DNA of 39,037 nt, from the UHGV virus genome UHGV-0175496. One strand, written 5' to 3'. Under the pieces are notes generated by a model that searched no databases, was not told where the DNA came from, and worked only from the letters and a program-made list of their open reading frames with translations. Below, piece after piece: positions 10,706-18,224 of this stretch. The translations under genes were made by a program, and so were the position numbers. Position 1 is the stretch's first letter. Each line of letters begins with the position of its first letter. This DNA comes from a virus.

Positions 10706-10999
10706 ATGGTTCGTGCAAACAAACGCAACGAGGCTCTACGAATCGAGAGTGCGTTGCTTAACAAAATCGCAATGCTTGGAACTGAGAAGACAGCGGAAGC
10801 TGTGGGCGTTGATAAGTCGCAGATCAGCAGGTGGAAGAGGGACTGGATTCCAAAGTTCTCAATGCTGCTTGCTGTTCTTGAATGGGGGGTCGTTGACGAC
10901 GACATGGCTCGATTGGCGCGACAAGTTGCTGCGATTCTCACCAATAAAAAACGCCCGGCGGCAACCGAGCGTTCTGAACAAATCCAGATGGAGTTCTGA
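10706..10999 (+). CDS. cII: CII transcriptional activator
   Basis: Internal start MVRANKRNEALRIESALLNKIAMLGTEKTAEAVGVDKSQISRWKRDWIPKFSMLLAVLEWGVVDDDMARL..., 97 aa, matches lambda CII; AAGGAAAT RBS. Confidence 0.9.
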   Translation: MVRANKRNEALRIESALLNKIAMLGTEKTAEAVGVDKSQISRWKRDWIPKFSMLLAVLEWGVVDDDMARLARQVAAILTNKKRPAATERSEQIQMEF

Positions 11000-14176: not shown

Positions 14177-14438
14177 TTTCTCTGAGCTTATTTCCTTCAA
14201 AAAAGACAGAGAAGAAATGCGGACTGAATCTGTCTATTACGTTCAACACCGGAATAAACGCTCTGTGCTTGATCAGGAGCTGGTTATTACCGGAGACCTG
14301 GCATTCAGAACATATAAGGCCAGCATGGAAATGAAGGATTTCCCTAAATGTGGTTCTGAAAGAGAAGCCGCGTTAAAGCTGGCAGAGTGGATGCAGAGAA
14401 TGGCTGCTGCAATTGAGAATTACTGGAGCGAACCATAA
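14169..14438 (+). CDS. Hypothetical nin-region protein
   Basis: 89 aa [33 protein letters not shown]...; tightly packed between ninF and ninG. No lambda counterpart recalled. Confidence 0.5.
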
Positions 14439-15049
14439 TGGCTAAACCAGCGCGAAGACGATGTAAAAACGAAGAATGTCGGGAATGGTTTCACCCTGCA
14501 TTCGCTAATCAGTGGTGGTGCTCTCCAGAGTGTGGAACAAAGATAGCACTCGAACGACGAAGCAAAGAACGCGAAAAAGCGGAAAAAGCAGCAGAGAAGA
14601 AACGACGACGAGAGGAGCAGAAACAGAAAGATAAACTGAAGATTCGAAAACTCGCCTTAAAGCCCCGCAGTTACTGGATTAAACAAGCCCAACAAGCCGT
14701 AAACGCCTTCATCAGAGAAAGAGACCGCGACTTACCATGTATCTCGTGCGGAACGCTCACGTCTGCTCAGTGGGATGCCGGACATTACCGGACAACTGCT
14801 GCGGCACCTCAACTCCGATTTGATGAACGCAATATTCACAAGCAATGCGTGGTGTGCAACCAGCACAAAAGCGGAAATCTCGTTCCGTATCGCGTCGAAC
14901 TGATTAACCGCATAGGGCAGGAAGCAGTAGACGAAATCGAATCAAACCATAGCCGCCATCGCTGGACTATCGAAGAGTGCAAGGCGATCAAGGCAGAGTA
15001 CCAACAGAAACTCAAAGACCTGCGAAATAGCAGAAGTGAGGCCGCATGA
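14438..15049 (+). CDS. ninG: NinG (Rap) recombination endonuclease
   Basis: 203 aa [41 protein letters not shown]... matches lambda NinG. Confidence 0.9.
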
Positions 15050-15252
15050 CGTTCTCAGTAAAAACCATTCCAGACATGCTCGTTGAAGCATACGGAAACC
15101 AGACAGAAGTAGCACGCAGACTGAAATGTAGTCGCGGCACGGTCAGAAAATACGTTGATGATAAAGACGGGAAAATGCACGCCATCGTCAACGACGTTCT
15201 TATGGTTCATCGCGGATGGAGTGAAAGAGATGCGCTATTACGAAAAAATTGA
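15046..15252 (+). CDS. ninH: NinH
   Basis: 68 aa [68 protein letters not shown]. Confidence 0.85.
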
Positions 15253-15901
15253 TGGCAGCAAATACCGAAATATTTGGGTAGTTGGCGATCTGCACGGATG
15301 CTACACGAACCTGATGAACAAACTGGATACGATTGGATTCGACAACAAAAAAGACCTGCTTATCTCGGTGGGCGATTTGGTTGATCGTGGTGCAGAGAAC
15401 GTTGAATGCCTGGAATTAATCACATTCCCCTGGTTCAGAGCTGTACGTGGAAACCATGAGCAAATGATGATTGATGGCTTATCAGAGCGTGGAAACGTTA
15501 ATCACTGGCTGCTTAATGGCGGTGGCTGGTTCTTTAATCTCGATTACGACAAAGAAATTCTGGCTAAAGCTCTTGCCCATAAAGCAGATGAACTTCCGTT
15601 AATCATCGAACTGGTGAGTAAAGGTAAAAAATATGTCATCTGCCACGCCGATTATCCTTGTGACGAATACGAGTTTGGAAAGCCAGTTGATCATCAGCAG
15701 GTAATCTGGAACCGCGAACGAATCAGCAACTCACAAGACGGGATCGTGAAAGAAATCAAAGGAGCGGACACGTTCATCTTTGGTCATACGCCAGCAGTGA
15801 AACCACTCAAGTTTGCCAACCAGATGTATATCGATACCGGCGCAGTGTTCTGCGGAAACCTCACATTGATTCAGGTACAGGGAGAAGGCGCATGGGCATA
15901 A
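15230..15901 (+). CDS. Ser/Thr protein phosphatase (lambda NinI/PPase-like)
   Basis: Start taken at [25 protein letters not shown] (GGAG upstream); metallophosphatase motifs GDLHG, GDLVDRG, GNHE. Confidence 0.85.
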
Positions 15902-16410
15902 GAGAACTAAACCTCACCAAAGAGCAGCACGAGTGGCTGAATGGCTGGCTTGAACTGTGGGGCGCATGGGTTTATTCAGGTCGTCTGGAAAAGCGCATGA
16001 GCAGCGTAATAGCGAAGTTCATGGAGAGCGTAGAGCCGGGAAGAGTTATGACAAGGCCAATGTGCAATGATGATGATGGAATGTTGATTTCTCAGGTCGT
16101 CGATTCCGTCATGTACATTGACAAAAAAGCCTTTGGAATCCTCCTCAGCTACTACGCTCATGGTTCATCTAAGCGAGCAATTGCATCCTACTATCACGCG
16201 ACTGCAAAGCCACGCAAGATGTGTGGACGTGGTGGCGAGGGATGGAGAAAACCTTCACTGGCAACCTGTAGAAACGAAATTGACGACATCCTGAAAGCGT
16301 CATTATTTGTTTTGTACCAGCCAATGCAAAATGCTTTCAAAATGCGTAAACGTGTTGAGAAAGTTAAGCATGTTGCTGTTAAAAACCTTGACATGCAATT
16401 AGCCATTTAG
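15892..16410 (+). CDS. Q: Late antiterminator Q, non-lambda type (phage 82/21-like family)
   Basis: 172 aa; no similarity to lambda Q as remembered. Sits between the phosphatase gene and the late promoter; N-terminal [12 protein letters not shown] resembles the phage-82-type Q family. Assignment rests on synteny plus memory. Confidence 0.6.
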
Positions 16411-16417
16411 CCATAAT
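16388..16417 (+). promoter_or_regulatory. Late promoter pR' (-35 TTGACA, 18-bp spacer, -10 CATAAT) overlapping the Q stop codon
   Basis: Near-consensus sigma70 elements at about 16388-16393 and 16412-16417, directly upstream of the terminator and the lambda-like S leader. Confidence 0.6.
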
Positions 16418-16426
16418 TAGAGGGTA

Positions 16427-16469
16427 AGCTGCCGTTAGTGACTCTTAAGTTGCAACGGTGGCTTTTTTG
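16427..16469 (+). terminator. Candidate tR' terminator (imperfect stem AGCTGCCGTT/AACGGTGGCT, then TTTTTTG)
   Basis: Hairpin plus T-run is followed by GTTTGCACAACAGGTAAGAGCATTGA, which matches the sequence just past tR' in lambda. Long loop, so moderate confidence. Confidence 0.45.
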
Positions 16470-17006
16470 TTTGCACAACAGGTAAGAGCATTGAACCCGC
16501 AGACCTCGCGGAATTGGTGAAAGGTGCCGCGCAGTGCTCTTATCGTTGTGGTGAATACGCAGGCTGATGCGTTAATCAGGTGAACGAGACACCCGCCGGT
16601 CCGTGATATGGCACACCGTGCCGGTCATATCTGCCGCGGTTAGGTTTACGAGGATTTCGTAAAGCTGGTCTAGGGTGAAGCCGTGAAAGCGGAGGAAGTA
16701 AAACGAGGCGTCGGTACACGCCTATCGTCATTAAGTCGGAGTTCAGCACCGACCGCCACAACCCAAACTGAGCCGTAGCCACTGGCTATCCTGAATTCAT
16801 CAGTGATAGTTATGCTGCGGCCTTCTACACATGACCTTCGTGAAAGCGGGCGGCAGGAGGTTGCGCTAACAACCTCCTGCCGTTTTGCCCGTGCATATCG
16901 GTCACGAACAAATCTGATTACTAAACACAGTAGCCTGGATTTGTTCTATCAGTAATCGACCTTATTCCTAATTAAATAGAGCAAATCCCCTTATTGGGGG
17001 TAAGAC

Positions 17007-17330
17007 ATGAAGATGCCAGAAAAACATGACCTGTTAGCCGCCATTCTCGCGGCAAAGGAACAAGGCATCGGGGCAATCCTTGCGTTTGCAATGGCGTACC
17101 TTCGCGGCAGATATAATGGCGGTGCGTTTACAAAAACAGTAATCGACGCAACGATGTGCGCCATTATCGCCTGGTTCATTCGTGACCTTCTCGACTTCGC
17201 CGGACTAAGTAGCAATCTCGCTTATATAACGAGCGTGTTCATCGGCTACATCGGTACTGACTCGATTGGTTCGCTTATCAAACGCTTCGCTGCTAAAAAA
17301 GCCGGAGTAGAAGATGGTGGAAATCAATAA
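17007..17330 (+). CDS. S: Holin S (S107; S105 would start at the third codon)
   Basis: 107 aa [64 protein letters not shown]... matches lambda S; dual-start MKM motif. Confidence 0.95.
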
Positions 17331-17790
17331 TCAACGTAAGGCGTTCCTCGATATGCTGGCGTGGTCAGAGGGAACTGATAACGGACGACAGAAAACCAGA
17401 AATCATGGTTATGACGTCATTGTTGGCGGAGAGCTATTCACTGATTACTCAGATCACCCTCGCAAACTTGTCACGCTAAACCCAAAACTCAAATCAACAG
17501 CCGCCGGACGTTACCAGCTTCTTTCCCGTTGGTGGGATGCCTATCGTAAGCAGCTTGGCCTGAAAGACTTCTCTCCGAAAAGTCAGGACGCTGTGGCACT
17601 GCAACAGATTAAAGAGCGTGGCGCTTTACCGATGATTGATCGCGGTGATATTCGTCAGGCTATCGACCGTTGCAGCAATATCTGGGCTTCACTGCCGGGC
17701 GCTGGTTATGGTCAGTTCGAGCATAAGGCTGACAACCTGATTGCAAAATTCAAAGAAGCTGGCGGAACAGTCAGAGAGATTGAGGTATGA
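17314..17790 (+). CDS. R: Endolysin R (lytic transglycosylase)
   Basis: 158 aa [53 protein letters not shown]... matches lambda R. Confidence 0.95.
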
Positions 17791-18224
17791 GCAGAGTAAC
17801 CGCGATTATCTCCGCTCTGGTTATCTGCATCATCGTCTGTCTGTCATGGGCTGTTAATCATTACCGTGATAACGCCATGACCTACAAAGAGCAGCGCGAT
17901 AAAGCAACATCCATCATCGCTGATATGCAGAAGCGGCAACATGATGTAGCAGAACTCGACGCCAGATACACAAAGGAGCTTGCTGATGCTAACGCGACTA
18001 TCGAAAGTCTCCGTGCTGATGTTTCTGCTGGGCGTAAGCGCCTGCAAGTCGCCGCCACCTGTGCAAAGTCAACGACCGGAGCCAGCAGCATGGTCGATGG
18101 AGAAAGCCCAAGACTTACAGCAGATGCTGAACTCAATTATTACCGTCTCAGAAGTGGAATCGACAGGATAACCGCGCAGGTTAACTACCTGCAGGAGTAC
18201 ATCAGGACGCAATGCCTTCGATGA
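17787..18224 (+). CDS. Rz: i-spanin Rz
   Basis: 145 aa; N-terminal [32 protein letters not shown] as in lambda Rz, with a divergent periplasmic coiled-coil. Confidence 0.9.
17980..18171 (+). CDS. Rz1: o-spanin Rz1, embedded in the +1 frame of Rz
   Basis: 63-aa embedded ORF with a lipobox (LLGVSAC) and proline-rich mature part ([16 protein letters not shown]), the classic Rz/Rz1 gene-in-gene arrangement. Confidence 0.7.

Follow-up and report, generated by a model that had tools for sequence, protein, structure and literature searches.

The window analysed here, the whole 39,037-nucleotide stretch of virus genome UHGV-0175496, carries an antiterminator gene Q followed by a predicted late promoter, a terminator, a leader and the lysis genes. 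The features located in this region are as follows, with coordinates referring to the window.

15879-15894, + strand: left mosaic junction at the Q start codon, a stretch common to lambda and phage 21
15892-16410, + strand: Q antiterminator gene, 172 aa, phage 21/PF06530 family, L/Sf6/CUS-3 subtype, assigned from the open reading frame, Pfam and alignments
16174-16410, + strand: DNA-binding half of Q (aa 95-172), diverged from Q21 by changes that include H95R and R128N and extended by 10 aa at the C-terminus
16388-16393, + strand: -35 hexamer TTGACA of late promoter pR', from a pattern scan, aligning with the annotated phage 21 -35
16397-16412, + strand: predicted Q-binding element (QBE) of direct repeats, from alignment to the phage 21 QBE at the same distance from the start
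16397-16404, + strand: upstream repeat AATTAGCC of the predicted QBE
16405-16412, + strand: downstream repeat ATTTAGCC of the predicted QBE
16408-16410, + strand: Q stop codon TAG, within both the promoter spacer and the downstream repeat
16412-16417, + strand: -10 hexamer CATAAT, from a pattern scan, at -12 to -7 as is the phage 21 -10 AACACT
16424, + strand: transcription start (G) predicted from alignment with the start annotated for phage 21, OL657228 position 39541
16425-16431, + strand: putative sigma-dependent pause element TAAGCT(G), +2 to +8, identical to the annotated phage 21 SDPE and within the terminator 5' arm
16426-16472, + strand: predicted intrinsic terminator tR', from folding and from the 100% identity of 16425-16468 to phage 21
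16463-16494, + strand: right mosaic junction, from 21-type sequence to sequence just past lambda tR', the 'bsq4' boundary in the CUS-3 record
16473-17006, + strand: late-operon leader from tR' to the holin gene, partly lambda-like
17007-18224, + strand: lysis genes S (17007-17330), R (17314-17790) and Rz (17787-18224), from Pfam holin and Rz matches and DNA identity to lambda

The Q product matches the Pfam family PF06530 (Phage_antitermQ) with E = 1.1e-25 and 90 bits, the cut-off being 26, and the solved structures of Q21, PDB 6JNX and 6P18, match it at E ~1e-92. An earlier note, made from the sequence alone, had considered Q not to be of the lambda type and had proposed aligning it with the phage 21 protein. 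That judgement was borne out, since BLASTP of the window Q against lambda Q gave no similarity (E = 4.6), and the alignment yielded 86% identity over all 162 residues of Q21, with residues 1-94 identical. Moreover, the search with Q gave no match to the lambda-Q Pfam family, and no DNA identity to lambda was detected across 15895-16462. Assignment to a lambda-type Q, as in lambda and P22, or to an 82-type Q was rejected in favour of the phage 21 family.

As reference for phage 21 we employed the curated GenBank record OL657228, in which the -35, QBE, -10, start (39541), SDPE (39542-39548) and terminator (39543-39590) are annotated. The near-consensus promoter that had been proposed to overlap the Q stop codon was found at the same coordinates, with TTGACA, an 18-bp spacer and CATAAT matching the consensus at 11 of 12 positions by pattern scan; at the level of sequence, therefore, a sigma-70 promoter lies at or just past the 3' end of Q. 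The spacer of phage 21 is 17 bp and its -10 is AACACT rather than CATAAT. The predicted start at 16424 is the seventh base past the -10 (range 16423-16426), and numbering from it agrees with the -21 and -13 positions used for phage 21 (PMC6606751). Q21 ends upstream of its -35, with its stop at -44, whereas the window Q, 10 aa longer, ends inside the downstream repeat with its stop at -16 from the predicted start. The position of the Q stop varies within the family, falling at -44, -34, -24, -17, -16 or -5. At the latter extreme, in Pantoea (L219-L221), the Q reading frame (175-176 aa) spans the -35, both repeats and the -10, and its stop lies 5 nt before the predicted start.

Two direct-repeat subsites with the geometry of the phage 21 QBE lie between the -35 and -10 of the window, their TTAGCC hexamers occupying -25 to -20 and -17 to -12; it is in sequence that they differ from phage 21, where QBEu is ATTGAGCA and QBEd is AATGAGCA, each containing the hexamer TGAGCA. 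The C residues at -21 and -13, which are essential in the phage 21 QBE (PMC6606751), are retained in the window, and both repeats differ from phage 21 at the same two positions of the hexamer. The protein has changed as well. In the structure of 21Q, bases are contacted by H95 and R128 (PMC6606751) and, among the five base-reading residues (H95, R113, A124, R127 and R128), R113, A124 and R127 are unchanged and the other two are altered to Arg and Asn, respectively. DNA identity to phage 21 is nested within the cassette, amounting to 96.5% for Q aa 1-94, 73% for aa 95-162, 62% over the tail of Q together with the promoter core, and 100% in the pause element and terminator.

The variation of these positions was surveyed across 37 loci, comprising 32 from a collection with one genome per species together with the window, phage 21, SF11, an Enterobacter phage and Edwardsiella phage GF-2. 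The best 80 of at least 598 relatives in a scan of viral contigs were 98-100% identical, and it was the species-dereplicated genomes, with loci from many Enterobacterales species, that supplied the diversity. All 37 loci have promoter, repeats and hairpin in a common layout, with TTGAC[AT], two 8-bp direct repeats at a fixed distance and TAnnnT at +2 to +7. In the downstream repeat, Asn or Lys at residue 128 occurs with T at hexamer base 2 (15/15) and Arg with G (22/22), while Arg at residue 95 occurs with C at base 6 in 18 of 19 cases, Shimwellia being the exception, and His, Tyr or Leu with A (18/18). Residue 128 therefore follows base 2 in 37/37 loci and residue 95 follows base 6 in 36/37, counts that are phylogenetically non-independent and in which the association is inflated by linkage, the Q 3' end and the promoter being adjacent. 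Four combinations occur naturally, namely R95/N128 with TTAGCC (the window), L95/N128 with TTAGCA, R95/R128 with TGAGCC (GF-2) and H95 or Y95/R128 with TGAGCA (phage 21). Pairing was perfect in the viral contigs with identical leaders, both for the window type (55/55) and for the 21 type (29/29).

From this covariation we infer that the window Q binds the TTAGCC repeats. Since H95R and R128N vary in step with bases 6 and 2 of the repeats in the family survey, a specificity different from that of Q21 is suggested, and the two changes point to altered specificity rather than to a loss of function. More generally, we lean towards a modular code in which residue 128, as Arg or as Asn/Lys, would recognise G or T, respectively, at base 2 of each hexamer, and residue 95, as Arg or as His/Tyr/Leu, C or A at base 6, giving orthogonal Q/promoter pairs. 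The main competing possibility is that the window Q has the DNA specificity of Q21, the differences in the repeats and at residues 95 and 128 being neutral drift, such that each of the two Q proteins would also activate the promoter of the other. This derives some support from the conservation of the C residues that are essential at -21 and -13 and of the contact residues R113, A124, T125 and R127, as well as from the Shimwellia Q (L215), in which R95 is found with TGAGCA repeats and which indicates that position 95 tolerates some mismatch. We consider it unlikely, however, given that both repeats are altered at the same two positions, that the tracking of residue with base is complete for position 128 and broken once for position 95, and that all four combinations are natural. 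Furthermore, the diverged block, extending from Q aa 95 to the C-terminus and through the promoter core (62-73% identity), is flanked by DNA of 96.5% and 100% identity, which fits a specificity cartridge maintained as one unit, and the same inference of a different specificity was made earlier for phage L (PMC8022706).

If the modular code holds, the family would contain the orthogonal pairs TGAGCA, TGAGCC, TTAGCA and TTAGCC, together with the rarer TTACCC, TGGACA and TGGCAC, and co-resident prophages could avoid setting off each other's late genes. The diverged block at 16174-16424 would then constitute a portable specificity cartridge lying between a shared polymerase-binding half and the pause/terminator module. 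As far as we found, neither the two-position code nor the four-way natural combination has been described in the literature. Such a code could be used for building orthogonal antitermination switches, and it could serve to predict cross-activation of late genes among co-resident prophages, including Stx phages that carry a 21-type Q.

Directly past the predicted start lies TAAGCT (16425-16430), a -10-like putative pause element at +2 to +7, and it is followed, before the late genes, by the hallmarks of an intrinsic terminator. The hairpin extends over 16426-16464 with a G+C core at 16428-16462, and is succeeded by TTTTTT (16463-16468) and then GTTT. Since a terminator scan with an 8-nt loop limit had passed over it, the hairpin was folded directly, yielding -20.2 kcal/mol and z-scores of -3.45 to -4.8 relative to shuffled sequences. 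The consensus hairpin is retained across 12 different short leaders, with 5 of 16 pairs carrying compensatory changes on both sides, and in GF-2 a stem of different sequence occupies the same place. The earlier note had the hairpin beginning within about 10 nt of the start and the leader shorter than about 50 nt. The nearness was correct, the hairpin actually beginning at +3 to +5 and not at about +10, and the leader length also stands, in that, with the predicted start as +1, the T-run begins at +40 and alignment to the phage 21 record gives a predicted terminated leader of ~46 nt.

In phage 21 itself the start is annotated at 39541 and the terminator at 39543-39590, so the terminator begins at +3, and the very short leader is the native design of the phage 21 Q family and no oddity. 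The distance to the T-run varies among the 37 loci (+39 to +42 in 17 and +61 to +109 in 16, with none within 130 nt in four), and thus a very short leader is common in the family although not universal. In the relatives with a T-run 60-110 nt downstream (for example Yersinia, Rahnella and some Pantoea, within L219-L243), the first ~30 nt still resemble GTAAG[CG]TGCCGTA..TG..CTTAAG, and at least in Yersinia massiliensis the early transcript sequence forms a hairpin that lacks a U-tract; the early hairpin may have a role beyond termination, for example in pausing or in Q loading. A different arrangement occurs in HK629 (L207, JQ182735; 789-1580), in which the promoter and repeats are as in the window and the sequence diverges directly past the -10. 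There, a different -10-like element, TATGCT, stands at the pause position, followed by a different hairpin and T-run, an HNH endonuclease gene and then an intact 21-type TAAGCTGCC...TTTTTTT leader and terminator. The arrangement resembles the insertion of a mobile HNH cassette, with a pause and terminator of its own, at the exact point between +1 and the pause element, which leaves two tandem terminators in the late leader of HK629, and the same junction was found in 12 IMG/VR loci.

That the hairpin is primarily something other than a Q-controlled terminator, with the ~46-nt leader acting for example as a trans-acting small RNA and termination being incidental, is a reading to which we attach very little probability. 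It could account for the 100% identity of the 44 nt at 16425-16468 between 21-type and window-type sequences where neighbouring DNA is 62-73% identical, and for the conservation of +8 to +30 even in those relatives with a distant T-run. The late promoters of phage 21 and of other phages are on record as giving short terminated RNAs, and in Stx phages terminated pR' leaders can act as small RNAs, as for StxS (PMC7547250). Nevertheless, a hairpin followed by a T-run constitutes a textbook intrinsic terminator, and the conservation is explained by the overlapping constraints of a pause element and both stem arms and by recent recombination. In addition, a small-RNA role, for which no Rfam match was found, would add to the terminator role rather than replace it. 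The candidate was rejected on the ground that the identical sequence functions as the terminator 21tR' in vitro (PMC6606751).

For the promoter, agreement with the consensus does not by itself exceed chance, as one match of at least 11/12 is present in the 39-kb window where 0.65 is expected from first-order Markov simulations, and the case consequently rests on homology and conservation, from which the promoter is judged to be real. The view that it is a chance site inside a gene end, with the real late promoter elsewhere, draws on that near-chance frequency and can be set aside, because the site is homologous position for position to the mapped phage 21 promoter and recurs in each of the 37 loci, the repeats and pause element keeping fixed distances from it, and because a pattern scan of the + strand across 16470-17006, before S, revealed no other promoter-like site.

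To the left of the cassette, identity to lambda ninG-ninH-ninI is 98.5% over window 14435-15894 and ends at the Q ATG, a point at which the lambda record carries a misc_recomb mark. The segment 15879-16468 is phage-21-like. On the right, lambda identity resumes at the T-run (16463-16494) and again over 16757-18035, encompassing the last part of the leader, S, R and a portion of Rz, at 93-97% DNA identity. The earlier suggestion of a swapped Q-promoter cassette is thereby upheld, and the comparison supports an exact replacement of lambda Q-pR'-6S-tR' that begins at the Q ATG and ends at the terminator T-run. Over its aligning portions, which make up about half of the first 25 kb, the early half of the window is also ~98% lambda/434-like. 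Within the nin region a ninH-like open reading frame (15046-15252) overlaps a ninI-type phosphatase frame (15155-15901, TTG start, 248 aa), and the latter, as listed, is probably too long at its 5' end when compared with lambda NinI (221 aa).

S, R and Rz would be the first late genes under Q control. The note had described S, R and the leader past the terminator as lambda-type; this holds for S and R and only in part for the leader, which matches lambda at 16474-16556 and 16757-17006 and is interrupted by an insertion of ~200 bp (16557-16756) that is absent from lambda, 21, Sf6 and HK75 and, among phage records, occurs only in CUS-3, Huey and IME10. The insertion fills the slot of the tRNA genes in phages 21, Sf6 and L, which lie right past tR' in those phages, and a tRNA scan of the whole window found none. 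An Rfam search of 15500-17500 at a permissive threshold produced a chance snoRNA match only. The 540-nt leader (16470-17006) folds far better than its shuffles (z = -6.6). Within its lambda-homologous part, ~120 nt before S, a perfect 12-bp hairpin, GGCAGGAGGTTG-CGCTAA-CAACCTCCTGCC (16846-16885), precedes GTTTTG and could be a second, weaker leader terminator. Tandem terminators have been described in the late leader of lambda.

Inside Q, on the minus strand, TTGCGTGGCTTTGC (TTGC-N6-TTGC, 16204-16217) occurs with a -10-like TAGGAT at 16190-16185. In phage 21 the homologous position holds the annotated site at which CII binds to the antisense promoter paQ. Two further minus-strand sites of this kind, at 1329-1342 and 10715-10728, may correspond to pI and pRE, the number of TTGC-N6-TTGC motifs in the window being no higher than expected by chance (11 found, 10.7 expected).

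Taken together, the region is very probably the late-gene switch of a phage-21-family (PF06530) Q, of the subtype found in L, Sf6, HK75, CUS-3 and Huey. For phage 21, Q-dependent readthrough at pR'/tR' has been obtained in vitro and the QBE subsites and contact residues are structurally defined (PMC6606751; bioRxiv 10.1101/651190). From the homology, geometry, fold, conservation and mosaic boundaries observed in the window, we infer a start site, a pause, termination and Q binding to TTAGCC that would operate as follows. Host sigma-70 polymerase would start constitutively at ~16424 from TTGACA-18-CATAAT, after which sigma region 2 would re-bind the -10-like TAAGCT at +2 to +7 and the polymerase would pause or backtrack at about +14, with a nascent RNA of ~14-20 nt. 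Without Q, it would proceed to transcribe the 3' arm of the hairpin, terminate in the T-run at about +46 and free the ~46-nt leader RNA. With Q present, two protomers would occupy AATTAGCC/ATTTAGCC between the -35 and -10, and the upstream protomer would load as a ring ('nozzle') at the RNA-exit channel of the paused polymerase, admitting only single-stranded RNA. Since the pause element lies within the 5' arm of the terminator, Q would have to load before the 3' arm is made. Formation of the hairpin would be blocked, resulting in readthrough of tR' and transcription of S, R, Rz and the structural genes.

Among the closest known systems, that of phage 21 shares with the window the Q family, the -35, two 8-bp repeats at -25 to -12, TAAGCT at +2 to +7, an identical terminator and a leader of ~46 nt. 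It differs in the -10, spacer, repeats and Q stop described above, and in carrying tRNA-Asn and tRNA-Thr genes past the terminator where the window has none.

The resemblance to the lambda Q-pR'-6S-tR' region is one of organisation, with a constitutive sigma-70 promoter, a QBE between the -35 and -10, a sigma-dependent promoter-proximal pause and a terminator before S, and it extends to the context, the nin and lysis genes that flank the window cassette being 93-98% lambda, whereas the lambda Q protein is unrelated. The lambda leader is ~194 nt, which agrees with the position of its T-run in our comparison, and the window, with ~46 nt, contains no such 6S RNA leader before tR'. Lambda Q, in addition, requires a -35-like element that is absent from other lambdoid phages (PMC6606751).

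The late cassettes of phage L (gp23), Sf6 (gp59), HK75, CUS-3 and Huey are 96-99% identical to that of the window, and over the whole segment phages CUS-3 and Huey match the window at 98.7% identity. Within the cassette the differences are minor point changes; in the window and Sf6, for example, the upstream repeat reads AATTAGCC, and HK75, CUS-3 and L have AATTATCC there. Past tR', tRNA genes are present in L and Sf6, whereas the window has the lambda-like leader with the insertion that it shares with CUS-3, Huey and IME10. For phage L it was reported in 2021 that gp23 is 80% identical to 21 Q and diverges from residue 94 to the C-terminus, including the QBE-contacting residues, and that the presumed QBE is AATTATCC/ATTTAGCC instead of ATTGAGCA/AATGAGCA, such that a different specificity was expected (PMC8022706). 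In the Sf6 record the homologous promoter, "qut site" and "t R'" are annotated as similar to phage 21, and in the HK75 record pR' and Tr' are annotated at the same places. The subtype is also abundant, with at least 598 viral contigs encoding a relative of the window Q, the best 80 of which are 98-100% identical, and with ~400 records at 95% identity or more to the subtype among 5,426 complete E. coli genomes. The cassette is therefore an already known and ordinary one, annotated in the near-identical published phages Sf6 and HK75 and in phage 21, and for annotators the comparison locates the start of the late operon and the Q family that controls it, and indicates that a short leader is normal for this family.
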